Shown piece after piece: positions 22,301-54,188 of a stretch of DNA of 64,000 bases. Location: assembly GCA_964544585.1 (NCBI GenBank), contig CAZJBV010000004.1, positions 5,169-69,168 of the forward strand. The letters run 5' to 3'. The position numbers were made by a program, and so were the translations under genes. Under the pieces are notes generated by a model that had not been told where the DNA came from, did not search any database, and saw only the letters and a program-made list of their open reading frames with translations. Source of the DNA: an uncultured Gammaproteobacteria bacterium (GTDB lineage: Bacteria; Patescibacteriota; Microgenomatia; 2-02-FULL-39-11). The first letter of the stretch is position 1; each line of letters opens with the position of its first letter.

Positions 22301-23284
22301 TTAGGTTAGATACCTAAACCACTCCCTTGTTTCTTTTCTTATTTTTTTTGGAGTCCATACAGGAGCTTTTTTCCAATAATCAATATTTTCCAGCATAATT
22401 TTTACCCCCTCCGCAAAAATCACTTTCGGTCTCCAACCTAAGGCTTTCTGAATTTTTCTAATATCCGCTTGTGTTTTATCCGGTTCTCCAGGTCGCTTGG
22501 GTATATACGTCACTTTTCCACCTAAAAGCTTAACCAATGTATTTACACTCTGAGGCTTTCCAGTTCCCACATTAAAAACTTCTCCACTCACTTTGGATTC
22601 CACAGCTTTTATAAATGCATCTATAACATCAGTCACAAAAGTAAAATCTCGAACTTGGGTCCCATCTCCTACTACAGTAAAAGGACAACCAGCAAGCTTT
22701 TGCGCCAAAAAAACTCCAAACACGGCCCCATATGTACCTGATGTCCTCGATCGCGGCCCATATACATTAAAAAGCCTCAACGAAATAAGCGGAAGTTTAT
22801 ATATATGCGCCCAGGAAAGAGCATAAATTTCTCCAGCATATTTTGTCAGTGCATAAGGATATCGAGGATCGATTTCTGCCACTTCACTGGTCGGATATGT
22901 TTTGGGAATTCCATAACAAGACGATGATGCAGTATAAATAAATCTTTTTATTCCTGCCTGTCTCGCTGCCTCAAGTACATTAAACGTTCCATCCACATTA
23001 GCCCGATGATAATCCAATGGCCTTATTATCGAAGGTACAATGTCGGCTAGGGCCGCCAAATGAAAAACCCAATCTACTTTCTGAAAATATTTGTCGAGTT
23101 TCTCAACATTTTTTGAAATATCTACTCGGAAAAAGCTTAATTTGTCACTTTTAATATATGAAAGATTCTCTCTTCTTCCAGTTGCCAGATTATCCAAGAC
23201 AATTACACTATGACCATCCCTAATAAGACGCTCAACCAAATGGCTTCCTATAAATCCCGCTCCTCCGGTAACAAGTGTTTTCAT
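22301..23284 (-). CDS. NAD-dependent epimerase/dehydratase (UDP-glucuronate decarboxylase/4-epimerase-like)
   Basis: LVTGGAGFIGSHLVERL, ASSSSCYG, YALTKYAGE; 327 aa. Confidence 0.8.
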   Translation of the reverse strand: MKTLVTGGAGFIGSHLVERLIRDGHSVIVLDNLATGRRENLSYIKSDKLSFFRVDISKNVEKLDKYFQKVDWVFHLAALADIVPSIIRPLDYHRANVDGTFNVLEAARQAGIKRFIYTASSSCYGIPKTYPTSEVAEIDPRYPYALTKYAGEIYALSWAHIYKLPLISLRLFNVYGPRSRTSGTYGAVFGVFLAQKLAGCPFTVVGDGTQVRDFTFVTDVIDAFIKAVESKVSGEVFNVGTGKPQSVNTLVKLLGGKVTYIPKRPGEPDKTQADIRKIQKALGWRPKVIFAEGVKIMLENIDYWKKAPVWTPKKIRKETREWFRYLT

Positions 23285-24855
23285 AATTTTAATTCATATA
23301 AACTAATGTTTTCTCTCTCATAAATCTTTTTAATAAACGTATATTTCTCAAAACCTCCTCCACCAGCCGCTAAAATATGGCTTATATTGTTTTTCTGTAT
23401 TAAATCTTTTGCTTCAACTTCTGTTAAAACTCCATCCAATATTTGTAAAGCTTCTTGCGTTTTTTTATTCCCATCTATTGTCATATGAGAAATGGGGTCT
23501 CCATAATATACCCTTCTCCCCGTTATAGCCGGAAATGACTCATTATATGGCCATCTGACAAGAAAAATACTTTCGGCAGATGTATTTTTCTTTGCAAAAT
23601 GATACGTTTCATAAACATCTTTTGGTAGATAAATTAGTCCCCTATCATTAGTCTTTGCTACAAGATCATCTTCAAGTTGTCCTAAATAAGATGCTGCTGT
23701 CAAAGATGCATAAATTAAAATAATTGTTATTATCACCCATACTCTCCATTTTTTAAAAAATGATGAGATAAAAATTATTCCCTCAGTCGCCACTGCGGCA
23801 ATGAAAATATAAATAGCTTGGGGCCAAAATCGCACATTCATAATTCCCAATGAAAAATGTAATTTACTTACAAATAGGGTAAAACAAATAATGATAAATA
23901 TTAGACCAAATATTCTTTCATGCTTTAGACTCTTTATAAATGGAAAAATACCTAAAATAGCAAATAAAGACACGGGCCCGTTCGCATAAAAGAACGAAAT
24001 AAAGTCCATTGGTAGCCTCTGATAAGATTCCCAAGTTAAAATAGTACTGTAGGGGATAGTTTTATATATTTCCTGGATATAAAAAGCCGGAAATACTCCA
24101 CCGAAAAAGTATACAACAAGTGGCACAAACAACTTAAATCCCCCCCGAATACCTGCAATTAATCCCGCTCCCAAAACTAGCACCCAGAAAATAGGACTAA
24201 TACTAGCTAAAAGAAAACCAGAAAGACTAAGTAATAATAGATGCCTTTTATATAAAATACGCAATCGACCTATTATTAACAAATAAAAAAAGAAAGAAAA
24301 GGCAAGAAGTGCGCTTGCCAAAAGATGATTCGGAGTAGGCCCAAATCTCGAGAAAAAATTTCCCGTGTTATACCAGAAGTAATGATACCCAAAATCTAAA
24401 CCTTGCTTTGATATTTCCACAATTGGCCATGCGGTAGAAGAGGCAAATAAAAAGAATGATAAAATTCTCTTCAATCTGGAATCAGGAAAAATAAGCCGAA
24501 GAACTAAATAGGATGCAATAAAAAATAATATCCTAAAAAGAAATACTCCTACATGATAAATACCAATCGGTCCAAAGCCAAATTTTGTCAGTATAAAGCC
24601 AAGAAGTACAAATTCCCATCTAGATAAATTTTTAGGCACATTTTCTGCCGTATACAAAAGTGCAGAAGACAAAATATTATTTTCTCCTTGTACAATCCAC
24701 GATATATAATTGAAATAGTCAGGCGCATAATGAATAGTCCCCAGGTAGATATTCCCAGGCTGTGTCCGTATCCAGTCGGCAATAAATCCTAGAGTTAACA
24801 GAAAAACGCAAGCAGTAGTTATTCCCAAAATCGAAATCCATTCCCTTTTGTTCAT
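23281..24855 (-). CDS. Member of 7-copy paralogous ~540-aa polytopic membrane protein family (putative GT-C glycosyltransferase)
   Basis: Shares the N-terminal loop pattern H-x-(A/N)-x-D-(Y/F)-x-x-Y-x-S-x-x-Q-G-E and the C-terminal Y-x-G pattern with the other six copies. Confidence 0.45.
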   Translation of the reverse strand: MNKREWISILGITTACVFLLTLGFIADWIRTQPGNIYLGTIHYAPDYFNYISWIVQGENNILSSALLYTAENVPKNLSRWEFVLLGFILTKFGFGPIGIYHVGVFLFRILFFIASYLVLRLIFPDSRLKRILSFFLFASSTAWPIVEISKQGLDFGYHYFWYNTGNFFSRFGPTPNHLLASALLAFSFFFYLLIIGRLRILYKRHLLLLSLSGFLLASISPIFWVLVLGAGLIAGIRGGFKLFVPLVVYFFGGVFPAFYIQEIYKTIPYSTILTWESYQRLPMDFISFFYANGPVSLFAILGIFPFIKSLKHERIFGLIFIIICFTLFVSKLHFSLGIMNVRFWPQAIYIFIAAVATEGIIFISSFFKKWRVWVIITIILIYASLTAASYLGQLEDDLVAKTNDRGLIYLPKDVYETYHFAKKNTSAESIFLVRWPYNESFPAITGRRVYYGDPISHMTIDGNKKTQEALQILDGVLTEVEAKDLIQKNNISHILAAGGGGFEKYTFIKKIYERENISLYELKL

Positions 24856-25757: not shown

Positions 25758-25760
25758 AAG

Positions 25761-26279
25761 TTATGTGTACAGCTTCTTAAATATCATAAACAAGCTGTGA
25801 TGCAATCGAAATATAGAAAATCTATTAACCAAGTTATAAATATCTCCCTGTACTTTTACCTCTCCACTTTTTAAAAGTCTTTTCAGGCGTTCATCAACAA
25901 TCATTCTCTCATTATATTTTTCAATGATTGATTTTTTGTTTATTCCATTACTACCCGCAATATATATTTCCCTCAAAATCCTCACTCTCAAAGAAGCAAC
26001 CATCATCCCAAAAAAACCCAATATATAAGACGCCGCCAGTAAGTTGAAAAGAATAAAACTTATTAGAAGTAAAACAAAATAAACTCCAATCGTTTGGTTT
26101 AAGAGAAATAAAAATATTGAAATAAAGATTAAAGAAATTATGTTGCCACCGACAAAAGTGAATAAAAGACCTCTAATTACACTATGTTTATCAATGCTTC
26201 GAAAAACTAAAAAATGAATAAATACAAATAAAAAAAGCGATATAAAAGAAGCAAATATAACAGCAAAATCCACTTTCAA
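25761..26279 (-). CDS. Small membrane protein (3-4 TM) with C-terminal winged-helix-like soluble tail
   Basis: 172 aa. It has the same architecture as its neighbour 26276..26788. Function unknown (GtrA-like flippase or membrane-tethered regulator are guesses). Confidence 0.3.
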   Translation of the reverse strand: MKVDFAVIFASFISLFLFVFIHFLVFRSIDKHSVIRGLLFTFVGGNIISLIFISIFLFLLNQTIGVYFVLLLISFILFNLLAASYILGFFGMMVASLRVRILREIYIAGSNGINKKSIIEKYNERMIVDERLKRLLKSGEVKVQGDIYNLVNRFSIFRLHHSLFMIFKKLYT

Positions 26280-26788
26280 CCTCCTTTATTCCATCTAAAA
26301 AAATTCCTATACTTTTCAAATATAAACATAATTAATCTACCTCTATTGGTTATAATATAAACTCCACTTTTTTCAATTACCATTCCCGCATCAATCAAGT
26401 TCCTGAGCCTTATATGAACAAGCGATGCATCCGAAAAATAAGAAATTATCTGCTCATAAGACTTTGCTCCACCCTCAAGATGATAAAAAATACGCGATGA
26501 AGGGCTATCCTCCCCAAGATAGGCATTGGCAAAATATAAAAAGTATAAAAAAGACAAAAGGGCATAAATTAAACTTGCCGTGATTGGTAACGAGACATTC
26601 CACCAAGAGATAGATGTGATTTTAGTTGAAAGGTAAAGCAATAAGAGTAATGTTGCTATAAATCCAAAACCCAAAATATAAATGCTTCGATAAGTTTTAA
26701 CTCCGTAAGATAAAAGAAATCGATGAAGAAAAATGTGTCCTATTACACTCAATAGGAAAAAAAATAAACTTAATAAAACATATATCAT
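26276..26788 (-). CDS. Small membrane protein (3-4 TM) with C-terminal winged-helix-like soluble tail (paralog of 25761..26279)
   Basis: 170 aa; C-terminal LVHIRLRNLIDAGMVIEKSGVYIITNRG. Confidence 0.3.
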   Translation of the reverse strand: MIYVLLSLFFFLLSVIGHIFLHRFLLSYGVKTYRSIYILGFGFIATLLLLLYLSTKITSISWWNVSLPITASLIYALLSFLYFLYFANAYLGEDSPSSRIFYHLEGGAKSYEQIISYFSDASLVHIRLRNLIDAGMVIEKSGVYIITNRGRLIMFIFEKYRNFFRWNKGG

Positions 26789-26800
26789 GGAATTATAAAA

Positions 26801-27517
26801 TTAAGAAAAATATACTCTCCTATATAAGGATATAGTATTTCCTAAAGCTTGCAAAACGCCTCTTACTGTTAAAATTTTAGAAGACCCATGCTGTCGCGGG
26901 GTATGCTCAAATGGTATCTCTTTAATCGTCGCATTTTTTTTTAGAAGTAATACCTTTATCTCACCTAATATTGCAATACTTTCCGAGGCAAGCCTTAGAT
27001 TCTTAATAAGTTTTGTTTTACAAACAAAATAACCGGTGAAATAATGCAATCTTAAACCAAAAAGAAGATTCATCAAAAGTACATAACTTCTAGAGGCAAT
27101 ACGCCGGAAAAATGTCCTAGCAGATGGATTACTCATATAAGACGAAATAATATCAGTATTCCTCGCCTCCTTCATCAAGAAAAGAAGCGATTTCCAAGAC
27201 ATATCATTATCTCCAGGAAATCCTCCAAAGTATTCTTTTGATGCCTTTCTGATTCCTCTTCTAAACGCATATCCAAATCCTTTATTCACCTCATTATGCA
27301 AAACAATTATATGTGTGTCTTTCTTTGCCAGGTCTTCCATTATTCTCCCCGTAGAGTCATCGCTTCCATCATCAACTAAAATTACCTCATAGTTACTAGT
27401 CACATTCTCACAGGCTTTTTGCACACTTTCCCAAGCATCCTTAATATTTTTCTCTTCATTATATGCACAGACTACAATCGAAAAACTCATGTATAAAACT
27501 CTCTTATCTTTTTGCAC
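26801..27517 (-). CDS. Family 2 glycosyltransferase (polyprenyl-phosphate sugar synthase, GtrB/DPM1-like catalytic domain)
   Basis: FSIVVCAYNEEKNI...VILVDDGSDDST... Confidence 0.8.
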   Translation of the reverse strand: MQKDKRVLYMSFSIVVCAYNEEKNIKDAWESVQKACENVTSNYEVILVDDGSDDSTGRIMEDLAKKDTHIIVLHNEVNKGFGYAFRRGIRKASKEYFGGFPGDNDMSWKSLLFLMKEARNTDIISSYMSNPSARTFFRRIASRSYVLLMNLLFGLRLHYFTGYFVCKTKLIKNLRLASESIAILGEIKVLLLKKNATIKEIPFEHTPRQHGSSKILTVRGVLQALGNTISLYRRVYFS

Positions 27518-28620: not shown

Positions 28621-28671
28621 GCAGCTAGTGTAAATGCTTTCTTCAAAAAAAACAACCGGAATTCTGCTATT

Positions 28672-28700
28672 GACAAGTCCTTTACCTTTTAATAAAATGT
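28672..28700 (+). promoter_or_regulatory. Sigma70-like promoter TTGACA-N17-TAAAAT for the vapB-like gene
   Basis: Read directly. It sits inside the extended DegT ORF's 5' region. Confidence 0.4.
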
Positions 28701-28707
28701 AAGACAT

Positions 28708-28968
28708 ATGAATTATTTACAAAGCACTCTAAGCCGCAAATATCAGACCGTTATCCCTTCTCAGATTCGAAGACTCCTCCAGTTAAAAGCAGGAGATACT
28801 ATCATCTGGCAAATTACTCAATATAAAAATCAAACCCAAGCCATTGCTTCTCCCAAACCCCAAAAATGGACAGAGTATACACGCGGGCTCGGAAAAAGTA
28901 TCTGGAAAGATGTCAATATAGAAGACTATATAAGGAAGCTACGTTCCGAATGGCAAAACCGCGACTAA
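28708..28968 (+). CDS. AbrB/MazE(SpoVT_AbrB)-fold antitoxin
   Basis: KYQTVIPSQIRRLLQLKAGDTI swapped-hairpin motif; 86 aa. It overlaps the downstream PIN gene. Confidence 0.5.
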   Translation: MNYLQSTLSRKYQTVIPSQIRRLLQLKAGDTIIWQITQYKNQTQAIASPKPQKWTEYTRGLGKSIWKDVNIEDYIRKLRSEWQNRD

Positions 28969-29414
28969 ACAAATTCCAAAAGGATCTTCTCACGTACGGG
29001 AATATTGGTGTTGACTCGATGATTTTCATCTATCATTTTGCCGATCATCCTCAATACGCACCGCTTACAAATATTTTTTTTGATGCTCTCGAAAATAATA
29101 AAATAACGGCGGTTACATCAATAATATCCCTTATCGAAATACTTATAAAACCGGAAAGAGAGAAGGAATTAGCCTTAGTAGAAGAGTATGAAAAAATACT
29201 CTATAATTTCCCAAATCTGGAAATACTACCAATAGATGAATCTGTAGCCAGGCTTGGAGCAAAACTGCGAGGACACTATTCCTTTCTCAAGACTCCAGAC
29301 GCCATTCAGTTAAGCGTCGCACTTCTGAAAGACTGCAAAGCATTTCTCACCAATGATGAAAAACTCAAGAGAATAAAAGAAATTCATACCATTGTCCTCC
29401 AAAACTACCTCTAA
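28950..29414 (+). CDS. PIN-domain (VapC-like) toxin
   Basis: IGVDSMIFIY (N-terminal catalytic Asp), LTNDEKL (C-terminal D). The start is trimmed to Met29 of the track ORF. Confidence 0.55.
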   Translation: MAKPRLNKFQKDLLTYGNIGVDSMIFIYHFADHPQYAPLTNIFFDALENNKITAVTSIISLIEILIKPEREKELALVEEYEKILYNFPNLEILPIDESVARLGAKLRGHYSFLKTPDAIQLSVALLKDCKAFLTNDEKLKRIKEIHTIVLQNYL

Positions 29415-29420
29415 CACCCA

Positions 29421-29687
29421 TCATTCCAGTAAATCACGCAGTGCCTTGTAAATATCTTTTCTATGCCCTATGAGAACCACATAAAAAAAGGAAGCTGTCT
29501 TTTTATAGACAATACGATAATCGCCTATTCTAATTCTATATATATCTTTGAAGCCTTGTAATTTCTCCTCATTAGGTACCTTGTTCTCGTCTCGAATTTT
29601 TCTTATTTTTTGAACAATCGCTATTTGATCTATTTTGGGAATTCGACGAAGTTTCTTTTCCGCATGTGGGGATAAAATGACTTTCAT
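29421..29687 (-). CDS. RelE/ParE-family type II toxin
   Basis: 88 aa; YRIRIGDYRIVYKK...VVLIGHRKDIY is typical of RelE/ParE. Confidence 0.6.
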   Translation of the reverse strand: MKVILSPHAEKKLRRIPKIDQIAIVQKIRKIRDENKVPNEEKLQGFKDIYRIRIGDYRIVYKKTASFFYVVLIGHRKDIYKALRDLLE

Positions 29688-29923
29688 ATTCCCAATTCTC
29701 TAGCTACACTCTCAAAATCTCTTCCCTTTTTGAAATCGGAAGCTTCAACTGCTTTCCTATCTATAAAATTTTCGATATAAGAAACAAGTTTATCATATAT
29801 ATCTTTCCCAATAAGATACGCTTTCACTTCATTTCTTTTTTCCACCGCAACAGGATAGTCTCCCGCGCTTTCAATATATTTCGCTGGACTAGTTTTAAGC
29901 TGAGATATAGAAACTGTAGTCAT
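29684..29923 (-). CDS. Phd/YefM-like antitoxin
   Basis: 79 aa; N-terminal TVSISQLKTSPAKYIE pattern. It overlaps the toxin by 4 nt. Confidence 0.5.
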   Translation of the reverse strand: MTTVSISQLKTSPAKYIESAGDYPVAVEKRNEVKAYLIGKDIYDKLVSYIENFIDRKAVEASDFKKGRDFESVARELGI

Positions 29924-29985
29924 AAAAAAATGATATCAAATCATAGGTCTCTTGTCAAGACCTATATTTAGGTCTCTCTTCGTCC

Positions 29986-30014
29986 TTGACAAAAGCCTCT
30001 AAATTAGCTAGACT
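29986..30014 (+). promoter_or_regulatory. Sigma70-like promoter TTGACA-N17-TAGACT, with upstream operator-like inverted repeats (29944-29965 TAGGTCTCTTGTCAAGACCTA)
   Basis: Read directly. It lies 28 nt upstream of the ATG at 30042. Confidence 0.4.
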
Positions 30015-30041
30015 AGACTTAGTCAAGTTTAACCTACATCT

Positions 30042-30272
30042 ATGATGACCAATATTTACCAAGCAAAAACTCAGCTCTCCAAGCTCATCGAGAAAGTCAC
30101 CAAAGGTGAAGAGGTCATCATCGCCAAAGCAGGAAAACCCGTAGCAAAATTAGTGGCTTTTGAAAAGAAACTACAACCCAGAAAACCCGGCCTCTTAAAA
30201 GGAAAAATTTTTGTACCTGATAATTTCAATGATGAAGATGAAGAAATAAATAAGATGTTTTATGGTGAATAG
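30042..30272 (+). CDS. Phd/YefM-family antitoxin (partner of downstream PIN)
   Basis: MTNIYQAKTQLSKLIEKVTKGEEVIIAKAGKPVAKLV matches the Phd/YefM consensus. Confidence 0.6.
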   Translation: MMTNIYQAKTQLSKLIEKVTKGEEVIIAKAGKPVAKLVAFEKKLQPRKPGLLKGKIFVPDNFNDEDEEINKMFYGE

Positions 30273-30660
30273 GATAAACAGCACAGGCTTCCTCCTCGAT
30301 ACAAATATCTTCCTTTGGTGGCTCAATGACGACAAAAAGCTAAAATCGGCAATAAGAGAAACTATGGCAGATCCCCAAAATATACTCTATATATCTGTAG
30401 TTTCTGCATGGGAAATAAGCTTAAAGCATAAAATTGGAAAATTGCCATTGAAAACAACTCTCAAAAGATGTTTTGAAATTTCTCCATTTCCTATATTAAC
30501 TCTGCGCCTTGAACATATTCTAAACTTAGACAAATTGCCACTTTTCCACAAAGACCCATTTGACCGTCTTTTGATTACTCAATCAAAAGTAGAAAACCTA
30601 ACACTCATCACGTCAGATCAACAGATGAGAAAATACAACATAAGCTTATTAAAAGCTTAA
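30262..30660 (+). CDS. vapC: PIN-domain VapC toxin
   Basis: LLDTNIFLW, SVVSAWEIS, DPFDRLLITQS: classic PIN acidic residues. Confidence 0.7.
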   Translation: MVNRINSTGFLLDTNIFLWWLNDDKKLKSAIRETMADPQNILYISVVSAWEISLKHKIGKLPLKTTLKRCFEISPFPILTLRLEHILNLDKLPLFHKDPFDRLLITQSKVENLTLITSDQQMRKYNISLLKA

Positions 30661-31700: not shown

Positions 31701-32341
31701 TAAAAGTCTCCTGTATAATCCATTTCCTTAAATAACTTCTTCCATTCGGAAACACTCATATACGTCAAGGCAGTCAGATTCCACATTGCCATTCTTCTCC
31801 TTTCTTCCTCATTTCTATATGCATCGACGGTTATAAATGCATCTTTTCTTGTCACCCTCTGAATTTCTCTTATGGCCTCTTTGCAGTCCTCCAAAGGTAA
31901 ATTATGGACAGTATTTACTGAAATGACTAAATCAAAAGATTTATCCTTATAAGGAAGTTTTTTTGCATTACCAACTCTCAAAAATGGTTTTACCTCAGGC
32001 ATAGCGTTTTCAATTGCATACGTTGAAATATCTATCCCGGCTAGTTTTATACCAGGAATTAATCGCTGAAAATCATACAACATAAATCCCTTTCCGCATC
32101 CCACATCCAAAATTGAACTTTTCGCTGTTAAGTTGTAATGCTTTTGAAAATCGCCAACCACTCCTGTCCAAAATCTCGGATGATAATTATATCCTCCATA
32201 TCCATATTTCCTCTCTCCATCAAAAAACTCTCTCCCAAATTGTCTCGCAATTTTTCTTACTTCTTCCGTTTTTTCCTCAAATCTCGCATCGAGATTTCTT
32301 TTTGCCTGCGGATATTTTTTTAAAAGATTAATTTCTGCCAT
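31685..32341 (-). CDS. Class I SAM-dependent methyltransferase
   Basis: Motif I ILDVGCGKGFML, motif post-I DIS, motif II FDLVISV. Confidence 0.7.
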   Translation of the reverse strand: MAEINLLKKYPQAKRNLDARFEEKTEEVRKIARQFGREFFDGERKYGYGGYNYHPRFWTGVVGDFQKHYNLTAKSSILDVGCGKGFMLYDFQRLIPGIKLAGIDISTYAIENAMPEVKPFLRVGNAKKLPYKDKSFDLVISVNTVHNLPLEDCKEAIREIQRVTRKDAFITVDAYRNEEERRRMAMWNLTALTYMSVSEWKKLFKEMDYTGDFYWFIP

Positions 32342-46169: not shown

Positions 46170-46894
46170 TTATTGAATTCTTTTTTAACCATCAATTTCC
46201 ACCACAATTTTAAAAGATTAGTTCCTGTTTTATAAAGCCTATTAAAATTAAAAAACTGACTCTTCCCAGAAGTCCTCCAGAAGTGATGCACCGGTACCTC
46301 CGTAATAGTATATCCCGCATGATCTATCTTTTTCACCAATTCCACACAGATTGTTCCTGTATTTTCAAAGAGTTTTACTTTTGTAAATATTTCTCGCCGC
46401 ATAAGCCGAAAATCACAATCAGTATCGGCAATAGGAATTCCAAATGCTATCTTGACAATATAGTGATACATGCGCCCAGCAACAATTCTAAACCATGGAT
46501 CATTTCTTTTTATTTTATATCCATTTACCATTCCGATTCCGGGTTTCATTTTTTCATAAAGTAAAGCAAGTTCTCTAGGGTCATACTGGGCATCACAATC
46601 CGTATAGAAAATTAAGTCTTTCTTACAAGCACTAATACCGCTTCTTAAAGCCCCCCCATACCCCCTGTTTTTTTCGTGATGAACAATTCGAATTCTAGAT
46701 GAATTGAAAACTTCAACTACGGAATCAAGCGCAGCTGAATTTTCAGGCAAACTGCCATCATCAATGATTATCACTTCCCAATCATCCGTCAATTTTGAAA
46801 CATTTGATATCGAGAGTCCTACCAAGCTCCCCACCGTCCCCCAATCATTAAGAAAGGGAAAAAATATTGAAATAGAAGGTTTTTTTAACACCAT
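46166..46894 (-). CDS. Family 2 glycosyltransferase (CsbB/GtrB-like)
   Basis: IFFPFLND...VIIIDDGS...DCDAQYDP (DxD). Confidence 0.75.
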   Translation of the reverse strand: MVLKKPSISIFFPFLNDWGTVGSLVGLSISNVSKLTDDWEVIIIDDGSLPENSAALDSVVEVFNSSRIRIVHHEKNRGYGGALRSGISACKKDLIFYTDCDAQYDPRELALLYEKMKPGIGMVNGYKIKRNDPWFRIVAGRMYHYIVKIAFGIPIADTDCDFRLMRREIFTKVKLFENTGTICVELVKKIDHAGYTITEVPVHHFWRTSGKSQFFNFNRLYKTGTNLLKLWWKLMVKKEFNK

Positions 46895-46947
46895 TGTAAT
46901 GCCTGCATCATAGCAAATTTAAAAAGATAGTGTAATATAAAAGGAAA

Positions 46948-48582
46948 ATGCTAAAACTGTTAGAATCAAAAATCTTTTTTTTTCTGACTACAACCATCAT
47001 CATACTCTCATTAAACCTTACTCCATTAGTTCTTCAATATTCCCATTCTCCCCCCGGACGTACATTTGCCCTCATCCACAACAATACACAAGATTTCTTC
47101 TTCTACCAATCCCTTATGAATCAGGGGGCAGAAGGTAGCTTGTTGACTCGCGATTCCTACACCTCCGAACCACACCATTCTTCCATCATATTTTCCTATT
47201 TTCTTTGGTTTGGCAAAATAAGCAACCTACTCAATATACCCTATCCCATCATGTATCACTTAATTAGAATACTATTCGCCATCCTTTTTCTTCTTTCTGC
47301 CTACTTCCTCCTTTTTGCCTTTTCCGTCCCTCACCCACGATTAACTTACTTCCTCTTTCTCTTTGCCGCACCCCTCATGCATCAAATAGAAGATGGCGGA
47401 ACAACAAGAGAAGTTGAATATATGTACTGGTGGACCGGAATGGATCCAATAAGACGCGCCGCCTACCTTCCCCACCACGCAATCGGAGCTTTCCTCCTGG
47501 TTTTATCAATGATTCTCATAGTAAGGTTTATTAAAAAACCACAGCGCAAATATATCATTTGGCTTTCAATATTCGCCATAATCTTAGCATTTATCCATAC
47601 TCCTAGCTTATTTATCCTCTTAATCACCCTACCCGGAGCTCTCTTTATTTATAATTTAAATTTCATTAAAAATTTCAAATTTCAAATTTCAAATTATTTT
47701 CCTTTATTGGTTTATTGGTTTATTGGTTTACTAGCCTTATTGTTTATGGTCTCCCAAACCCAAAAAGGCTTTCCCTGGAGTCAATACATAGAATGGGAAA
47801 AAAGCCTCCAATTCCCTCTGGATAAAGAACTTATCGGTGCCTTTGGATTTCTTTTCCCCTTTTCTCTCGTAGGAATAGTAAAAGCACTAAAAACTAAAGA
47901 ATTTCCTTTTATTCTTGTCGCCACTTGGTTTATTTTTCCACTTTTTCTCATCCCTTTTTCTCCAATGTTAAATATCTCCAATATCCGCCTGATTCAGGGT
48001 ATTCCATATCTTCCACTTGCCATTCTGGGAGTTTTAGGCATGAAAACAATTGGTAATTTACTCCTAAAAACTCCCCTACCTTTTTTCTCGCGGCTCAAAA
48101 ATTGGCATATAATTTCAATTTGGTACGGGATTTTTACTATATTATTTATCATCTTTACCTTCCCTACCATAATCTGGAGTATTAAAGACCAAACTCGGGA
48201 ATTCTGGGCCATTTATGGCAATGTCTATTTTGACAATAGACTTATAGAAGCATTTAGTTTCATGAATCAGAAACTTCCCCAGAACACAGTCACAGTTGCC
48301 ACATTTTATGCTGGAAATTATATTCCCGCATTTACAAATACCACCAGTTTTATCGGTCACTCTGGTTACACATATAATCTTTCCCAAAAAGAGCCACTCG
48401 TCAAAAGATTTTTCGAGGGGAATATGTCCGACCAAGAAACCAGAGAGTTTATCTCTTCAAACAATATTGACGTAGTCTTCCAAGGTCCCGAAGAAATGAT
48501 TTTATTCGGTAGAGAACTCTACCCCAATGTTTTAAGACCCATTTTCAATAATGGGGTTGTCATTCTCTATAAAATGATATAG
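46948..48582 (+). CDS. Member of 7-copy paralogous ~540-aa polytopic membrane protein family
   Basis: ALIHNNTQDFFFYQSLMNQGAEGSLLTRDSYTSEPHH; C-terminal FIGHSGYTYN...VVFQGPEE. Confidence 0.45.
   Translation: MLKLLESKIFFFLTTTIIILSLNLTPLVLQYSHSPPGRTFALIHNNTQDFFFYQSLMNQGAEGSLLTRDSYTSEPHHSSIIFSYFLWFGKISNLLNIPYPIMYHLIRILFAILFLLSAYFLLFAFSVPHPRLTYFLFLFAAPLMHQIEDGGTTREVEYMYWWTGMDPIRRAAYLPHHAIGAFLLVLSMILIVRFIKKPQRKYIIWLSIFAIILAFIHTPSLFILLITLPGALFIYNLNFIKNFKFQISNYFPLLVYWFIGLLALLFMVSQTQKGFPWSQYIEWEKSLQFPLDKELIGAFGFLFPFSLVGIVKALKTKEFPFILVATWFIFPLFLIPFSPMLNISNIRLIQGIPYLPLAILGVLGMKTIGNLLLKTPLPFFSRLKNWHIISIWYGIFTILFIIFTFPTIIWSIKDQTREFWAIYGNVYFDNRLIEAFSFMNQKLPQNTVTVATFYAGNYIPAFTNTTSFIGHSGYTYNLSQKEPLVKRFFEGNMSDQETREFISSNNIDVVFQGPEEMILFGRELYPNVLRPIFNNGVVILYKMI
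47671..47730. repeat. (AATTTCA)x3 followed by (TTTATTGG)x3 tandem repeats inside the CDS
   Basis: Read directly: 47671-47691 and 47704-47727. They encode KFQISN and LVYWFIGL. Confidence 0.8.
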
Positions 48583-50190
48583 AGTGACACTTCCTTTTTG
48601 GTAAATCTTCCGCATGAATGGATAGACTTCTAATAATTCCTCTACCCCACCTAGCTCTTTTTCTTGGGGCCCAAAAAATATATATCTAATCCTATTGTCT
48701 TTTAATAATTTTCTTGCCTCATCGCTACTCATCTCCCCCTTAAAAAAACGAGCAACCACTATCTCCTTCCAATTTTCATCAGGCGTATTTGCGTGTCCAA
48801 TATAGACAAAATTTCCCGCATATGCCGGAATAAAATTTCCCGCAGTTACATAGGTCAAAACAACACTATTCTTATCAGTTGAATCGGCAAGATAATATAC
48901 CCCCTCCATAAAATCCGTCAGTGGGTAAGCAAGTTGAGCTCCAATTGGCACATTAAATGTCGCCACCCTTTTGGCAAAAATCTGATCGGTCAACCATCCT
49001 ACCATAGAAACCATCACTCCCAACCCCATAAGAATAATTAGACTGATAATTATACCCACTCCTATCCTTACGTACCTTAAGTGGCCTATGTAGCCCAAAA
49101 CCCAAACAAAAAAATAAGTCGCCAATATCCCAAGAGGTATATTCAAGGCCGCTTCCGTAAATCTCGAGGGTGACTGTTCCGGCACATTTTCAAAAATCAT
49201 AAAAAGGACAAAGACCGAGACAACCCATGAAATTAAGGGGTAAAAATTAATTTTCTTTTTTATTAAAACGAGAATCCCGCCCAATATCCCCAGAGGAAGT
49301 AATGGCCCCAAAGCCAAAAAATATTCCCCATATGGTAAAAGAATCCTATGTTCAATATCAAAGATGGCAAGAGCCTTCCATGGTTGGATTTGAAACATAA
49401 GTTTTAAATAAATCAAAGACGGAAACGAAAATATAAAAAAAATAATCCGAGGTATAATTTTTTTAACAATTCCCTTTTTTTCCAGGACAAATTCAAGTAC
49501 TGTCAACACCACAAAAAATACGTACATCACGATCAAAGTCGGCGGGAAAATAATCCCTATCAGAAAACCTAAAACTCCCATCATAAGTAACTTAAAAACC
49601 TCAAGTGACCTGCCCTCCGAAAACCACCGCAAGAAAAGCAATAACCCTATCTGCCCAATCAAAATATGCGGAATAAATGTTATCCGTTGAAGTGAATCTA
49701 TAGCCGACCACCATCCCATATGGGTTGCAAAGCGAGGAATACCATTTACAAAGACTAAAACAGGAAAACTCCCCATCGTCACTACAAACAGAAAGCAAAC
49801 CACTACCCACCATCCTTTAAAAAAATATTGACAATATCGACTAATCAAAAAAAGCAACACAAACCCAAAAATAAGCCGGGATACATGATAAACTGCAGTA
49901 GGAGAAAGACTAAACACTCCTCCCAGCTTTCCTAAATAAAGATAGACTATCTGGAAAAGACTCCCCCCATGTGGTTCACTGTAGTATTTTTCCACCACCA
50001 GCCACCTTCCCTCCATCCCTTGTCTAATCCGGGAAAGATAAAAGTTATAATCAAACATATAATTATGCTCAAGAACAAAAGTCCTATTAGTTGGTAGTTG
50101 ATTTCGACTTGCCAATTCGTACAGACTAGGAGAAAAGGAAAAAATAACAAATAGGAAAGAAAGCAAAATGAGTACAATTCTTAAATTCAT
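48532..50190 (-). CDS. Member of 7-copy paralogous ~540-aa polytopic membrane protein family
   Basis: FVLEHNYMFDYNFYLSRIRQGMEGRWLVVEKYYSEPHGG; C-terminal YIGHANTPDE...IFFGPQEKELGG. Confidence 0.45.
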   Translation of the reverse strand: MNLRIVLILLSFLFVIFSFSPSLYELASRNQLPTNRTFVLEHNYMFDYNFYLSRIRQGMEGRWLVVEKYYSEPHGGSLFQIVYLYLGKLGGVFSLSPTAVYHVSRLIFGFVLLFLISRYCQYFFKGWWVVVCFLFVVTMGSFPVLVFVNGIPRFATHMGWWSAIDSLQRITFIPHILIGQIGLLLFLRWFSEGRSLEVFKLLMMGVLGFLIGIIFPPTLIVMYVFFVVLTVLEFVLEKKGIVKKIIPRIIFFIFSFPSLIYLKLMFQIQPWKALAIFDIEHRILLPYGEYFLALGPLLPLGILGGILVLIKKKINFYPLISWVVSVFVLFMIFENVPEQSPSRFTEAALNIPLGILATYFFVWVLGYIGHLRYVRIGVGIIISLIILMGLGVMVSMVGWLTDQIFAKRVATFNVPIGAQLAYPLTDFMEGVYYLADSTDKNSVVLTYVTAGNFIPAYAGNFVYIGHANTPDENWKEIVVARFFKGEMSSDEARKLLKDNRIRYIFFGPQEKELGGVEELLEVYPFMRKIYQKGSVTLYHFIENDNPIIENGS

Positions 50191-50225
50191 AGAAGTATTA
50201 TAATTGCGAGTATATCATCCACAGC

Positions 50226-51827
50226 ATGAATAATAGAATTACTACTCTCATTCTTTTATTGTTTATAACCATCAGTCTCAGTATCAGTCTACTTCCTGAT
50301 ATTTTTAGAATTATCTCCACACCCGCAAATACCATTTTTCCTCTCATTCACAACAACGCTAGTGACTATTTCTACTATCTCTCACTTATAAGACAAGGAT
50401 ACGATGGAAATCTCCTTCTTACTTCTAGAATGACCCCAGAGCAATTTCACCCCGCCTTTACCCAAACTATATTCTCAATCATGGGATTGGTATCTCGGCT
50501 ATTTTCACTTTCTCTTCCCCTCACCTACCTTTTGGCACGAATCGTATTCGGCCTATTTCTTCTCTTTACCATCATCTATTGCGCCAAAATTCTATTTAGG
50601 AAAAATATCTATGTTGTCAGCGCCAGTTTCCTAGCAATTTTTACTACTGGTTTTTGGATAATTGGAGAAAATTATACCGGCCTACCCGTCAGACAATATC
50701 TCATCCACTGGACCAGACTAGATCCTATCATCCGCACCACCTATCTTCCACATCATCTTGCCTCTACAGTCATCGGACTATTTTCTCTTATTATTCTCTC
50801 GAAAAGTTTAGATCAAAAAAATATCAAAATGGGAGTCTTGGCTGCTATTTTGGCTTTACTATCAAGCTTCATCTATTTTGCTACCATGGTTAACATTCTA
50901 GGAGGATTGACGCTTGTCGTCTTATTAACTATAAGATCCCTTACATATCAAAATTTAAAAGACAAGTTGCCCATCGTCTGTATATACATCTTATTATCAT
51001 CTTTGCCCCTCTTCTATTTCCGCAGCCTTTCCCTCACCTCATTTCCCTGGTCCGCTTATGATAAAGTCGGCGAAAACTTCAATTTCTATTTGCCTTTCTT
51101 ACATTACTTATACTCATCAGGCCTAGTCTTTCCCCTTACTTTAGTAGGTTTACCCCTCATTTTTAAGACAAAAGAATTTCTTCCCAAATTCCTGTTAGGA
51201 TGGGCTCTCTTTCCTTTTATCGGCCTTTTTGTTGTGGCCAAAATATTTCCCCAATATGGAAATGTTTACTATCTAGAAGCTACATCTCATATACCCTTTG
51301 GATTACTTTCCCTTTACGGATTTATTTACATTAAAAATAGATTTTATTTGCATAAAAAAGTCCTACTTTTAATATTTATTCTCCTCGGATTATATTTCAT
51401 TCCCCCCACCCTCACGTCCATAGTCTACGAGTCAGGCAGACTCAAAACCAACTATTACAATTTTTTCATTCCCGAGGACATTTTTAAAGGCTTCTCCTGG
51501 TTAGATGGTAATACCCCCTCCGAATCTATAATTTTAGCAGGCGGATATTTTGGCAATGTTGTTCCTGCCTTCACCCACAACAGAGTCGTCTACGGCCATC
51601 GGGCAAATACTTACAAGCCAGAAGAAAAAAAAGCCGCACTAGATATATTTTTCAACCAAACAGATCTCACCCAATCCGCCAAAATATTAAAAAAATTTAA
51701 CGTCTCATATATATTTTTTAGCCTAGATACCAATAATCCAATCCCTCAATTCGAAACGAGTCTTCCTGTAATTAAAGTTTACCAGAATCCATCTGTATCT
51801 ATTTATAAAGTAACTACGCCTCAATGA
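50226..51827 (+). CDS. Member of 7-copy paralogous ~540-aa polytopic membrane protein family
   Basis: FPLIHNNASDYFYYLSLIRQGYDGNLLLTSRMTPEQFH; C-terminal VYGHRANTYKPEE...YIFFSLD. Confidence 0.45.
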   Translation: MNNRITTLILLLFITISLSISLLPDIFRIISTPANTIFPLIHNNASDYFYYLSLIRQGYDGNLLLTSRMTPEQFHPAFTQTIFSIMGLVSRLFSLSLPLTYLLARIVFGLFLLFTIIYCAKILFRKNIYVVSASFLAIFTTGFWIIGENYTGLPVRQYLIHWTRLDPIIRTTYLPHHLASTVIGLFSLIILSKSLDQKNIKMGVLAAILALLSSFIYFATMVNILGGLTLVVLLTIRSLTYQNLKDKLPIVCIYILLSSLPLFYFRSLSLTSFPWSAYDKVGENFNFYLPFLHYLYSSGLVFPLTLVGLPLIFKTKEFLPKFLLGWALFPFIGLFVVAKIFPQYGNVYYLEATSHIPFGLLSLYGFIYIKNRFYLHKKVLLLIFILLGLYFIPPTLTSIVYESGRLKTNYYNFFIPEDIFKGFSWLDGNTPSESIILAGGYFGNVVPAFTHNRVVYGHRANTYKPEEKKAALDIFFNQTDLTQSAKILKKFNVSYIFFSLDTNNPIPQFETSLPVIKVYQNPSVSIYKVTTPQ

Positions 51828-52579
51828 GAATCAATCTTAGCATCATTACTCCCGTCTACAATGAGGATAAATTACTATCAAAAAATATCAAAAATTTTGT
51901 TGATTTTTTCCAAAAAAGACCGGAAATAGACCATTTTGAAATCATCATCTCCGAAAACGGCTCGAAAGATAAAACACTCGCCATAGCCAAAAAAATCAAA
52001 AAAAAATATCAATTCATAGAGCTTATTAATTTGAACGAAAAAAGCCTAGGACTTGCCCTCAGCTACGCCATCAAGAAATCTAAATATCCATATCTATATT
52101 TTCTTCCCATCGACAATCCATTCCGCTTTATGGACTATTTTGGATCGATTAAAAATATAAATCGCTTTGACATTATCTTTTCCACCAAAAACCACCCACA
52201 ATCAGTCTATAAAAACAAACCACTCCGCAAAGTTGCCTCCCACATATTCTCATTTTTAGTCAAAGCAATATTTCACCTTCCGCTCACTGATACACAAGGA
52301 ACCTTCTTTGCAAAAAGAGAAAAACTTCTATCACTTCTTCATTATTCCACATCCAAAGGACCTTTTTTTCAAACCCAATTAGCAATCTATGCTTTCAAAA
52401 AAGGTATGCATATCCAAGAATTTCCCGTAAATTACACTACACCCTACAGACGCCGTTCAAAAATTTCCCTCATCAAAGATGGATCGATGCTTATTTTTGA
52501 GTTGCTAATAGAAAAGTTAAAAATTATGAAAGCTAGTCTAACACCTCGTAGAGAACATTTAGGCCGCTATTATAAATAA
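51824..52579 (+). CDS. Family 2 glycosyltransferase (polyprenyl-phosphate sugar synthase-like)
   Basis: LSIITPVYNEDKLL...IIISENGSKDKT... Confidence 0.7.
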   Translation: MRINLSIITPVYNEDKLLSKNIKNFVDFFQKRPEIDHFEIIISENGSKDKTLAIAKKIKKKYQFIELINLNEKSLGLALSYAIKKSKYPYLYFLPIDNPFRFMDYFGSIKNINRFDIIFSTKNHPQSVYKNKPLRKVASHIFSFLVKAIFHLPLTDTQGTFFAKREKLLSLLHYSTSKGPFFQTQLAIYAFKKGMHIQEFPVNYTTPYRRRSKISLIKDGSMLIFELLIEKLKIMKASLTPRREHLGRYYK

Positions 52580-54188
52580 CTTTCTTATTAGGTAATTTAT
52601 CAACACTTGTTTCCCATGGTCGAGGCGTATCAGGCCCAAAATATATATATTTAATTTTATATTTTCGGATTATATCCACCAACTCATCGCTTGAAAAAGT
52701 ATTAGAATAAAATTTGGTCATTATGTCCAACTTTTCATTGTAATTAAAAGTCGCATCTCCATGTCCTACCAATACTCTATTATGGGCAAATGAAGGCAAC
52801 ATTATCCCAGATGAATACCCTGCCAAAACCACCGACTCTGGGGGAGTATTGTTATCAAGGTAAGTAAAAAGAGACAAAGTATCTACAGGTATATGGCTAA
52901 AAAGATTAAAAGCATTAGTTTCTTCAAACTGTGTTTTCAACGAAAGGTAACAATTAAGAATAAAAAGCACCACAAGAAACATCGTGAGTAATATAGTAAT
53001 AAATTTTTTTCTTAAATTATCATAAACTATAAATATTCCCATGCTTCCAAGAATAGAAAGTGGTATAAATTGACTTAACTGAAGGAGTCGAAACATAGAA
53101 ATTTCTGGAATAAATTGCGATGCAAATACTCCGATAACTGGTCCAAAAGCCCATCCTACTATAAAATAATAAAGAATACCCTGTCGCTTTCGCCAAGTCA
53201 AAACTAAAACAGTAATGGCAAGCGGTAATGCTGGCCCCAAAACCATAATATATTCCCAAAATGGCCACCGCAAAGTAGCTATATCATTTCTTAAAAAATT
53301 GTCCCACGGAAATACAGTAAATAAATAAAATCGATAATAATAAACACTTATAACCAGAGGCAGCAAATATAAAACAAAATGACTACTCAAATAAAAAAAC
53401 TTTCTCTCCTGGAAAAAAATAAGAAAAAAAGCTAAAGGTAAAATAAATATCATCCCCGCCAGAGTAGCCGGATTTATAAGCACAGAAAAAAAGAGTAATA
53501 CTGAACCTATCAAAGAATATTTAAATTCATGATCTTTTATACCCTTATAAGCGCAAAAGAGAAAACCAATCATCAATATTGATGACGCTGTATGATGGGG
53601 TAGAAACGCAATTCTCCTTAAAACATCAAAATTTGTAATCCCCCACAGAAAATTTCCAAAAGAAGTTGTTACATCCCCCGTCCAATTAAATCTCAAAAAA
53701 CTGGACATTAAAACCACAGATAAAAAAGAAATTAATCTTCGCCATCGCCCCTGAACAAGTTTGATAATGAGAATATAAACCAAAAGAAGCCTTATAAATC
53801 CAAAAATAAATCGCGAAAATGTAAAACTTACCATTGGATTAAATCCTAAAGACCCTAAAGTAAAACCCAGAATAGAAAAAAAAGTATGTCCATATTTTCG
53901 CGGAAATATTTCAGGCGTAAAACGCGAAGTTAAAGCAATTTGACCTTCGCTACCATCCTTCATCCACGAAAGAAACTGATAATAATCAGGGTAAAAATTA
54001 AAAGCCATCGTATAAATTTTACCGGATGGCGTCCCAAGACTGTGATATAAAATCGGAAGAAAACCGATAAATATAGATATTAAAATGACTCCAACAATCA
54101 AAAAAAATTCATTTTTCCAAAAAACTGAAATCTTCATAAACAATTCTAATATATCACAATTATTTTTACCTACTTGACAAATAATCAA
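52533..54188 (-). CDS. Member of 7-copy paralogous ~540-aa polytopic membrane protein family
   Basis: MAFNFYPDYYQFLSWMKDGSEGQIALTSRFTPE; C-terminal VGHGDATFNYNE...YIYFGPDTPRPW. Confidence 0.45.
   Translation of the reverse strand: MIICQVGKNNCDILELFMKISVFWKNEFFLIVGVILISIFIGFLPILYHSLGTPSGKIYTMAFNFYPDYYQFLSWMKDGSEGQIALTSRFTPEIFPRKYGHTFFSILGFTLGSLGFNPMVSFTFSRFIFGFIRLLLVYILIIKLVQGRWRRLISFLSVVLMSSFLRFNWTGDVTTSFGNFLWGITNFDVLRRIAFLPHHTASSILMIGFLFCAYKGIKDHEFKYSLIGSVLLFFSVLINPATLAGMIFILPLAFFLIFFQERKFFYLSSHFVLYLLPLVISVYYYRFYLFTVFPWDNFLRNDIATLRWPFWEYIMVLGPALPLAITVLVLTWRKRQGILYYFIVGWAFGPVIGVFASQFIPEISMFRLLQLSQFIPLSILGSMGIFIVYDNLRKKFITILLTMFLVVLFILNCYLSLKTQFEETNAFNLFSHIPVDTLSLFTYLDNNTPPESVVLAGYSSGIMLPSFAHNRVLVGHGDATFNYNEKLDIMTKFYSNTFSSDELVDIIRKYKIKYIYFGPDTPRPWETSVDKLPNKKVIYNSGLNVLYEVLD

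Follow-up and report, generated by a model that had tools for sequence, protein, structure and literature searches.

The seven paralogous proteins of 524 to 552 amino acids described here are probably integral-membrane glycosyltransferases of the GT-C_A class, which belong to an uncharacterised family and serve a fixed extracytoplasmic assembly or decoration from polyprenyl-phosphate sugars. They are encoded in a 64-kb stretch (the window) of a groundwater Candidatus Gottesmanbacteria genome, an uncultivated CPR bacterium, and this locus is a giant extracytoplasmic glycosylation island, since the window holds 16 or more GT-C genes. A previous sequence-only reading of the same DNA had proposed membrane transferases paired with polyprenyl-phosphate-sugar synthases, and the structural matches given below support membrane glycosyltransferases of the GT-C type.

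All seven open reading frames are present at the coordinates and on the strands given below. In an all-against-all BLASTP comparison of the 54 ORFs of the window, they were recovered as full-length homologs with 21-29% mutual identity and E-values of about 2e-7 to 9e-52. Such scores are far above the expectation for low-complexity membrane proteins, and the possibility that the identity of the copies is not above random, which the sequence-only reading had named as fatal to its claim, can be set aside. No further polytopic protein encoded in the window matched the seven in this comparison, except for a short and weak match (E 5e-4, 132 residues) between copy 3 and the PMT_2 protein at 42568-44085. 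Likewise, the family HMM recovers exactly the seven copies in the window (E 1e-116 to 1e-174), with the same PMT_2 protein as one additional weak match (E 2e-11), so that the proposed set of seven homologous membrane proteins of approximately 540 residues is confirmed on both grounds. Pfam and NCBIfam models matched none of the seven copies, in agreement with the earlier impression that models for ArnT, PMT, STT3 and YfhO do not recognise the family. One member carries the UniRef name 'Glycosyltransferase RgtA/B/C/D-like domain-containing protein'. The family comprises 7,291 clusters at 50% identity, and members elsewhere commonly occur in arrays of two to five.

All seven copies belong to the family by BLAST and HMM, and copy 6 was taken for structure modelling. 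Copy 1 (23281-24855, minus strand, 524 aa), a GT-C_A glycosyltransferase-like protein, overlaps each flanking epimerase gene by 4 nt. Copy 2 (32328-33962, minus strand, 544 aa) lies within a tight minus-strand operon (38047 to 30657, overlaps of 4-16 nt) of which copy 3 (36431-38047, minus strand, 538 aa) is the first gene; neither adjoins a GT2 gene, and the operon also contains two short GT-C genes of PMT_2-like type. Copy 4 (46948-48582, plus strand, 544 aa) is divergent from the GT2 gene at 46166-46894 with a 53-bp spacer, and copy 5 (48532-50190, minus strand, 552 aa), which has 51 nt at its 3' end in common with copy 4, has only family members as neighbours on both sides. Copy 6 (50226-51827, plus strand, 533 aa) is co-directional with the GT2 gene at 51824, with an overlap of 4 nt, and copy 7 (52533-54188, minus strand) is convergent with the same GT2 gene; it encodes 551 aa from a TTG start, whereas the GenBank annotation gives 534 aa (52533-54137 of the window). 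The orientation of the four right-hand copies indeed alternates, but a GT2 gene touches just three (starting at 46948, 50226 and 52533), not all four as had been supposed.

The proteins are predicted to possess 11 transmembrane helices with a cytoplasmic N-terminus, and a C-terminal alpha/beta domain of approximately 130 residues of the STT3/AglB 'core' type which does not contain the WWDYG peptide-binding motif. Lysine and arginine reach a density per residue of 0.22-0.29 in loops predicted to be cytoplasmic and of 0.00-0.10 in those predicted to lie outside, which puts the C-terminal domain and every conserved polar residue on the outer side; these positive-inside statistics thus also predict an extracytoplasmic position for the conserved acidic loop to which the sequence-only reading had drawn attention. 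This first extracytoplasmic loop bears an invariant catalytic-type aspartate (D47, 100% of 56 diverse members), followed in conservation by R170 and H176 (98% each), R348 (93%), an acidic residue at position 282 (D/E, 82%) and D166 (68%); D166, R170, H176, D/E282 and R348 face outward by the predicted topology. The first-loop aspartate and R170 are retained in all seven copies of the window, and in the copy 6 subfamily tyrosine replaces the otherwise conserved R348. The sequence landmarks originally picked out by eye hold up as a consensus without being strict: the N-terminal loop is invariant only at the aspartate and one glycine, while the C-terminal stretches (I/V/L)-P-A-(F/Y)-x-x-N-x-V-x-x-G-H and Y-(I/V)-(F/Y)-F-G occur in most copies. 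In the predicted structure of copy 6, all top structural matches are GT-C enzymes, with STT3B the closest. The polytopic N-in topology and the acidic residue that never varies in the first external loop are those of the GT-C_A superfamily, and a GT-C_A fold with an alpha/beta core domain at the C-terminus is common to the family and STT3/AglB/PglB. Oligosaccharyltransferases bind metal through acidic residues, namely an EL1 Asp, an EL2 DxD/DxH and the Glu of the EL5 TIXE/SVSE motif, and in addition have a conserved Arg. The putative constellation of D47, D166, D/E282 and R348 resembles such an active site, with a geometry deduced from the order of secondary structure elements and the topology.

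The small GT2 neighbours, which are devoid of transmembrane helices, resemble ArnC, DPMS, GtrB and AglJ, and their earlier designation as polyprenyl-phosphate sugar synthases is borne out by comparisons with the PDB, NCBIfam and Foldseek. The gene at 51824-52579 (plus strand, 251 aa, Pfam GT2), translationally coupled to copy 6, encodes a protein whose AF2 model (pLDDT 90.7) predicts a polyprenyl-phosphate glycosyltransferase fold, the top 15 Foldseek matches being ArnC, DPMS and GtrB. The ArnC-like polyprenyl-phosphate glycosyltransferase at 46166-46894 (minus strand, 242 aa) matches ArnC (E 7e-21), GtrB (4e-11) and DPMS (3e-6) in a phmmer search of the PDB, with ArnC also its best NCBIfam match, and the DPMS/ArnC-like protein at 26801-27517 (minus strand, 238 aa) in the copy 1 cassette matches DPMS (E 5e-13) and ArnC (3e-11). 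A polyprenyl-phosphate GT2 is found near copies 1, 4, 6 and 7, but not near copies 2, 3 and 5; as these three have no directly adjoining GT2 and the GT-C genes of the window (at least 16) outnumber its five GT2s, the assignment of donors is indirect.

Two of these GT2 plus GT-C arrangements are kept in other contigs. The copy 1 cassette, in the order DegT, GT2, two small transmembrane proteins, epimerase, copy 1, epimerase, HldE, epimerase and GmhA, is conserved in two related loci (L008 and L012), where orthologs of the GT2 at 26801-27517 hold the same position. Downstream of copy 1, this includes nucleotide-heptose-type sugar genes in the same order (18384-23284, minus strand): a GmhA-like isomerase (18384-19016), an SDR epimerase (19041-20027), an HldE-like kinase/adenylyltransferase (20097-21644) and a further SDR epimerase (22301-23284). 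The two small membrane proteins of 172 and 170 aa (25761-26788, minus strand), between the GT2 and the epimerase, are conserved as a pair in both loci; by hydropathy and sequence each has about three transmembrane helices and a C-terminal winged-helix-like tail, and family searches gave no match for them but a weak one to HTH_45. They occupy the place expected for a flippase. Orthologs of copy 6 are directly followed by an ortholog of the GT2 at 51824 in four further contigs (L011/L013, L014, L015 and L016). The arrangement of GT2 plus membrane transferase, as suggested in the sequence-only reading, is thus conserved in other genomes, which makes the logic of GtrB/GtrC or CsbB/YfhO the best reading.

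Arn-like cassettes, each made up of a DegT aminotransferase, an acyltransferase, an ArnC-like GT2 and a GT-C, recur in the window. Between copies 2 and 3, two short PMT_2-like GT-C paralogs of 418 and 410 aa (33959-36444, minus strand) are paralogous (E 1e-32 to 1e-36) to the protein at 4153-5427, which passes the Pfam PMT_2 cutoff. The PMT_2 GT-C at 42568-44085 and a YfhO GT-C at 44064-46169 (both minus strand) form an operon with the GT2 at 46166-46894. To the right of copy 7, on the plus strand, an ALG6/ALG8-like GT-C that ends in an NPCBM carbohydrate-binding domain (54937-56727) precedes a YfhO/DUF6541 GT-C (56700-59012), and the NPCBM domain may point to a glycan as acceptor within this island. 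Among the scanned ORFs of the window, Pfam matches to flippases of the GtrA, SMR/EamA or MATE type were not found. A family member in the related locus L006 has directly upstream of it the gene for a 124-aa protein that matches EamA weakly.

In the proposed pathway, SDR epimerases/dehydratases, DegT aminotransferases, GNAT acetyltransferases and HldE/GmhA-like heptose enzymes would provide nucleotide sugars in the cytoplasm, the small ArnC/DPMS/GtrB-like GT2s would load single sugars onto polyprenyl phosphate, and a putative flippase would transfer the lipid-linked sugar across the membrane, where each family member would attach it at a specific site on a surface glycan or glycoprotein. The analysis shows the homology of the copies, their fold class and topology, the conservation of polar residues that face outward, the nature of the neighbours and the conserved synteny; catalytic activity, the monosaccharide donor on a lipid monophosphate, the sugar identities and the acceptor are what we infer in this scheme. 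With the GT-C fold and the sugar-loading enzymes alongside, decoration of the cell surface from outside the membrane is the most likely role of the copies and, as these represent old and distinct orthogroups, each of the seven most likely has its own donor, acceptor or linkage specificity within a fixed line. Such a line would resemble the mycobacterial set of GT-C enzymes, for which one or a few lipid-linked donors suffice to build arabinan and LAM.

Since STT3B is the closest structural match and the residue constellation is oligosaccharyltransferase-like, some copies may use a diphosphate-oligosaccharide donor. That the family as a whole represents minimal STT3-like oligosaccharyltransferases, which transfer a preassembled glycan en bloc from polyprenyl diphosphate to proteins, for instance S-layer or pilin subunits, is unlikely. 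In the C-terminal domain of STT3, the WWDYG motif binds the +2 Ser/Thr of the sequon. This defining acceptor-binding motif is missing in 56 of 56 family members; in HMM alignments, the STT3 'WWDYGYQI' is aligned with 'xAGNxIPAF' of the family, with G443, P447 and A448 conserved in the equivalent columns and neither Trp nor Asp present, so that with WWDYG replaced acceptor recognition would have to differ. The Pfam STT3 model (PF02516) has no match among the seven copies at E<=1 or the 56 members at E<=0.01, the NCBIfam archaeo_STT3 model reaches just E 0.23 with one copy, and the incomplete conservation of D166 also speaks against this explanation. According to the work on AftA, many GT-C_A enzymes have the C-terminal alpha/beta sandwich (PMC10265970). 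Five polyprenyl-phosphate GT2s are encoded in the locus. Among approximately 50 window ORFs scanned there is no phosphoglycosyltransferase and only one cytoplasmic GT4, which speaks against a lipid-diphosphate-oligosaccharide donor being assembled here.

An expansion of recent date, evolving fast or varying between strains and giving combinatorial or variable surface decoration as the sequence-only reading had suggested, would agree with the dense clustering and alternating orientation of the copies, with the number of members in related loci, which varies from one to five, and with local rearrangements relative to L012. We nevertheless regard it as quite unlikely, because the paralogs have diverged so far from one another, every copy has closer orthologs elsewhere (35-61% identity), most of these outside relatives are clearly nearest to one particular paralog, and the cassettes keep their synteny between genomes in which orthologs are about 38-48% identical; in an unsystematic look, repeats or phase-variation features were not noticed. 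With such orthologs for each copy, the expansion looks, on sequence grounds, like an old and fixed multi-enzyme set and not a variable repertoire. Transporters, flippases or structural membrane proteins which merely possess a GT-C-like helical bundle would fit a family that is without Pfam and NCBIfam annotation and known from sequence and prediction, but we regard a non-enzymatic role as very improbable.

Hence the family is undescribed, while the kind of system to which it belongs, extracytoplasmic GT-C glycosylation, is well described. More tentatively, we consider it possible, if not the favoured outcome, that a new CAZy-level family, so far seen mainly in CPR bacteria, forms an extracytoplasmic line of two to seven paralogs which, together with about ten other GT-Cs, builds a CPR-specific surface glycopolymer or heavily glycosylated surface protein from polyprenyl-phosphate monosaccharides, among them unusual amino or heptose-derived sugars. 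Synthesis would then take place almost entirely outside the membrane, as a convergent counterpart of mycobacterial arabinan/LAM assembly. In a sub-variant, some members may be protein glycosyltransferases that lack WWDYG and follow a new rule for the acceptor.

Among known systems, the family is set apart by the lack of model matches, yet it is remotely homologous to STT3/AglB, in the C-terminal domain, and to PMT_2. Searched against the PDB, the family profile finds only STT3B (E 5e-6), the C-terminal domains of AglB-S and the C-terminal domain of yeast Stt3. With STT3/AglB/PglB (GT66, especially the short archaeal AglB-S) it appears to share the catalytic-type Asp on the first external loop and a conserved Arg after the third-from-last transmembrane helix, but the proteins are shorter, with about 11 instead of 13 helices, and are found in the context of polyprenyl-monophosphate sugar synthases and not of a pathway for LLO assembly. 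With ArnT/PMT_2 proteins (RgtA-D-like; GT83/GT39) and their ArnC and ArnB partners, it shares the Arn-like cassettes of the window and a remote homology: in hhalign, the family profile matches the PMT_2 protein at 42568-44085 (52 bits to PMT_2), the sole window protein remotely related to the family, with 96.4% probability (E 1.2e-9, 348 columns), a match which leaves out the N-terminal catalytic loop. The second PMT_2 protein (10853-12487) gives no hhalign match, Pfam PMT_2 (PF13231) matches none of the seven or the 56 diverse members (E<=0.01), and the first-loop motif is D-Y/F...Q-G..G as opposed to the D-E type. For YfhO (PF09586), there is no HMM match, and against the window's two YfhO proteins hhalign gives a probability below 1%.

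The concept of a GT2 polyprenyl-phosphate sugar synthase with a GT-C transferase has been described (PMC11127046, PMC8035078), and the GtrA/GtrB/Gtr*, CsbB/GtcA/YfhO and GT136 pentofuranose systems are alike in the GT2 gene adjoining a GT-C gene, a pairing here conserved across genomes. They differ in that a recognisable GtrA, SMR or MATE flippase is absent here, that the window GT2s do not have the C-terminal transmembrane helices of GtrB and ArnC, and that the GT-C genes outnumber the GT2s, so that the modules are not one-to-one. AftA (GT85) has 13 transmembrane helices, another donor pathway (DPA from PRPP), a phylogenetically unconnected host and no sequence similarity to the family detectable with the profile against the PDB. 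Its catalytic Asp likewise lies in the first long loop outside the membrane, an Arg in a late transmembrane helix contacts phosphate, and the periplasmic part is an alpha/beta sandwich (PMC10265970). The proposed organisation follows the logic of the mycobacterial AftA and Emb/Aft arabinosyltransferases, with several GT-C paralogs that work outside the membrane on a glycan with a lipid-monophosphate sugar.

The window is identical in sequence to contig JACPKX010000021 of a groundwater MAG assigned to Candidatus Gottesmanbacteria (CPR/Microgenomates; GCA_016186845.1) and has a GC content of ~35%. All seven ORFs claimed in the sequence-only reading are present, copies 1-3 at 23281-24855, 32328-33962 and 36431-38047 (all -) and copies 4-7 at 46948-48582 (+), 48532-50190 (-), 50226-51827 (+) and 52533-54188 (-), the last annotated in GenBank as a 534-aa protein at 52533-54137. 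Their common homology was equally borne out, as in an all-versus-all BLASTP comparison of 54 window ORFs they align over approximately the full length with 21-29% identity (E 2e-7 to 9e-52). No other polytopic protein of the window is linked to them, save for a short and weak match of 132 residues (E 5e-4) between copy 3 and the PMT_2 protein 42568-44085. Of the window proteins, a family HMM constructed from 56 diverse members matches exactly copies 1-7 (E 1e-116 to 1e-174), with the same PMT_2 protein as a weak extra match (E 2e-11). The sequence landmarks by which the copies had been recognized hold as a loose consensus, not as a strict motif, with one Asp and one Gly in the N-terminal loop being invariant in the MAFFT alignment, and alignments of diverse members contain no run of 7-10 conserved residues. 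The orientation of the four right-hand copies alternates as described (+, -, +, -), with 3'-end overlaps of 51 nt and 47 nt between convergent neighbours, and the proposed location of each copy beside a GT2 gene applies to copies 4, 6 and 7, with copy 1 in an operon context, but not to copies 2, 3 and 5.

The nearest relatives of each paralog from other samples show 35-61% identity to it, compared with 21-29% between paralogs, and most of them are unambiguously closest to one paralog. Because related loci on other contigs commonly carry several members (five in 21.6 kb in L011, four in L018, three each in L006, L017 and L019 and two each in L005, L010, L012, L020, L021, L023 and L024), multi-copy arrays are a property of the family and, judged from these comparisons, the duplications are old. 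While a variable or combinatorial repertoire had initially been suggested, old duplications, own orthologs for each copy and the common occurrence of arrays in the family make a fixed set, its members differing in specificity, more likely than a variable repertoire of recent expansion. The named family records are from Gottesmanbacteria or 'Patescibacteria group', one of them, from Gottesmanbacteria, with the UniRef name 'Glycosyltransferase RgtA/B/C/D-like domain-containing protein', and almost none of the cluster members of 20 representatives is named. On these few named records, with the taxonomic spread poorly sampled, the family appears to be mainly CPR. It may extend outside CPR, since locus L010 (ENA scaffold TANS21-1...scaffold_165), in which a YfhO-like gene lies between two divergent family members (9974-15410), is located on a contig of 49% GC with a GGDEF response regulator, YkuD, DsbD, PadR and LysE as neighbours that look non-CPR.

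When copies 1-7 were compared with Pfam and NCBIfam, no model was matched at E<=1 save NCBIfam archaeo_STT3 in one copy (E 0.23), and no GT-C Pfam model matched the 56 diverse members at E<=0.01 except for one DUF6541 hit. A seven-copy profile searched against 1.84 billion representative proteins, on the other hand, recovered 7,291 matches at E<=1e-3, of which 2,342 reach E<=1e-30. In comparisons using the AF2 model of copy 6, human STT3B (19.6; 432 residues aligned) and Mycobacterium tuberculosis AftA (19.4; 467 residues aligned) score highest, followed by Pmt4 (17.8), ALG12 (16.7), ArnT (15.6), AglB (15.3), PglB (14.9) and DPY19 (14.6). Among PDB sequences, the family profile matches only STT3B (E 5e-6), AglB-S C-terminal domains and the yeast Stt3 C-terminal domain. 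Profile-sequence alignment by hhalign indicates remote homology with the window PMT_2 protein 42568-44085 (probability 96.4%, E 1e-9, residues 100-504), with no homology detected to a second PMT_2 protein of the window. A kinship with YfhO, for which the tail had seemed similar by eye, was rejected, as hhalign against the two YfhO proteins of the window gave nothing. As the matches reach STT3-type and PMT_2 proteins remotely, and tests of membership place the family neither among STT3-type nor among ArnT/PMT-type enzymes, the family forms its own branch within the GT-C_A class, between these two types.

Transmembrane helices were assigned from AF2 helices and hydropathy with subsequent positive-inside statistics, hydropathy-only counting being too noisy, which predicts 11 TM helices per family protein. 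Across the 56 members, the density of K+R per residue is high in the six predicted cytoplasmic segments (0.22-0.29) and low in the predicted external loops and the C-terminal domain (0.00-0.10), and therefore supports a predicted N-in, C-out topology. All conserved polar residues locate to the predicted outside (numbering of copy 6): D47 (100%) in a helix of external loop 1, E72 (77%) in the same loop, D166 (68%) and R170 (98%) in external loop 2, H176 (98%) at the start of TM4, P274-W275 and D/E282 (82% for the latter) in the loop after TM7, R348 (93%) in the loop after TM9 and P447-A448 (91% for P447) in the C-terminal domain. The Asp and R170 are kept in all seven window copies; position 348, which in a weak alignment coincides with the conserved Arg of the STT3A 'vRLM' stretch, is a Tyr in copy 6 and its orthologs. 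An Asp on the first external loop combined with a late-TM Arg has been described for the AftA structure as a common GT-C catalytic arrangement (PMC10265970), and the family likewise possesses both, the Asp being invariant.

Sugar-nucleotide enzymes, small GT2s and large polytopic membrane proteins account for nearly all of the 64 kb. When Pfam-supported genes are taken together with their paralogs, the GT-C genes number at least 16, comprising the seven family members, four PMT_2 genes (513, 4153, 10853 and 42568), two paralogs of 4153 (33959 and 35212), two YfhO genes (44064 and 56700) and one ALG6/8-like gene with an NPCBM domain (54937). Outside this count are four further, unassigned polytopic proteins (2046-3569, 6706-8007, 8958-10856 and 38087-39562), of which 38087-39562 has a C-terminal-domain motif in common with the family (hhalign probability 71%). 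With five GT2 genes, one GT4 gene and no phosphoglycosyltransferase found among the window ORFs scanned with Pfam, the window is an unusually GT-C-dominated glycan locus. Between a DegT and a Zn-ADH gene reside three toxin-antitoxin-like pairs, AbrB-like 28708-28968 with a PIN protein at 28866-29414 (the latter checked against Pfam), Phd/YefM-like 29684-29923 with RelE/ParE-like 29421-29687 and Phd-like 30042-30272 with PIN-like 30262-30660; in the syntenic locus L012 the ADH gene directly adjoins DegT, so that 28708-30660 resembles an insertion of a TA cluster into the glycan island. GC skew on the + strand is strongly negative throughout the window regardless of gene orientation (-0.13 to -0.34 per 2 kb), most so at + strand genes. 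At 59573-59770, two divergent tRNA-Ala genes with anticodons GGC (-) and CGC (+), 50 bp apart, are flanked by genes for a small zinc-ribbon protein (59057-59368) and a LysM-M23 peptidase.

The five small GT2s of the window are all polyprenyl-phosphate-glycosyltransferase-like, and the four short ones are devoid of TM helices. GT2 46166-46894 matches ArnC (E 7e-21), GtrB and DPMS, GT2 26801-27517 matches DPMS (E 5e-13) and ArnC, and 13076-13822 and 40298-41443 have ArnC, Dol-P hexose transferase and AglJ as their closest matches; 51824-52579 is ambiguous in sequence, with ArnC, DPMS and GtrB as the top 15 structural matches (TM 0.67-0.75) of its model (pLDDT 90.7). Its ortholog directly follows copy-6 orthologs in L011/L013, L014, L015 and L016; a search for loci with a subfamily alignment (A4) gave one genome locus and 14 metagenome loci. 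Copy 1 is part of a translationally coupled cassette of DegT, GT2, two small membrane proteins, epimerase, copy 1, epimerase, HldE-like, epimerase and GmhA-like genes, the order of which is repeated in L008 and L012 with copy-1 orthologs of 38% and 48% identity. The two small proteins (25761-26279 and 26276-26788, -; 172 and 170 aa), each with ~3 N-terminal TM helices and a ~70-aa winged-helix-like C-terminal tail, are kept between GT2 and epimerase in both loci; these membrane-anchored wHTH proteins occupy the position expected of a lipid-sugar flippase, with no family match supporting such a role. The bifunctional HldE-like protein 20097-21644 (-) has an N-terminal adenylyltransferase and a C-terminal kinase, the reverse of Escherichia coli HldE, and adjoins GmhA-like 18384-19016; a nucleotide-heptose-type pathway in an operon with copy 1 is a notable feature of a CPR genome. 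From the HldE-like to the epimerase gene, ~650 bp (21644-22301) contain no convincing ORF and no Rfam match at the gathering threshold; the counterparts in L012 are nearly contiguous. Upstream, the Arn-like cassettes DegT-GT2-GNAT-PMT_2 at 14958-10853 (-) and DegT-PMT_2-like-GNAT at 6508-3578 (-), only the former of which includes an ArnC-like GT2, suggest lipid-linked N-acetylated amino-sugar donors.

CPR/Patescibacteria constitute a very large, mostly uncultivated share of bacterial diversity and live attached to other cells, and to our knowledge almost nothing is known about their surface chemistry. We found no paper that deals with the family or with CPR GT-C enzymes, and databases label the family 'hypothetical protein' despite thousands of sequence clusters. 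Recognition of the family as GT-C_A enzymes that pair with lipid-sugar synthases supplies concrete candidates for genes that glycosylate the CPR envelope. Fold, probable chemistry and module logic are all well known and no new mechanism is revealed; new are the family itself, an STT3-type C-terminal domain without the canonical OST motif and the arrays inside a very GT-C-rich island. As a compact (~530 aa) STT3-like scaffold, the family helps to trace the evolution of acceptor specificity in the OST/ArnT/PMT/AftA superfamily.

We infer a pathway, including catalysis by the family members, in which nucleotide sugars would be made in the cytoplasm, single sugars put on polyprenyl phosphate by the ArnC/DPMS-like GT2s and the lipid-linked sugars moved out by a putative flippase, upon which each family member would add its sugar to a surface acceptor, the external Asp serving as catalytic base and the phosphate being held by Arg/His. 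The main alternative, OST-like en bloc transfer to protein, is retained because of the STT3-like features of the family, although the content of the locus speaks against it and the hallmark WWDYG of STT3/AglB, which aligns opposite xAGNxIPAF, is missing from the family; we consider it improbable. Stepwise transfer of single sugars from lipid carriers by the family members, as proposed here, follows the same logic of lipid-sugar synthase and GT-C enzyme as the Gtr, CsbB/YfhO, Arn and GT136 systems (PMC11127046; PMC8035078), as does mycobacterial arabinan assembly, with many GT-C enzymes per donor.
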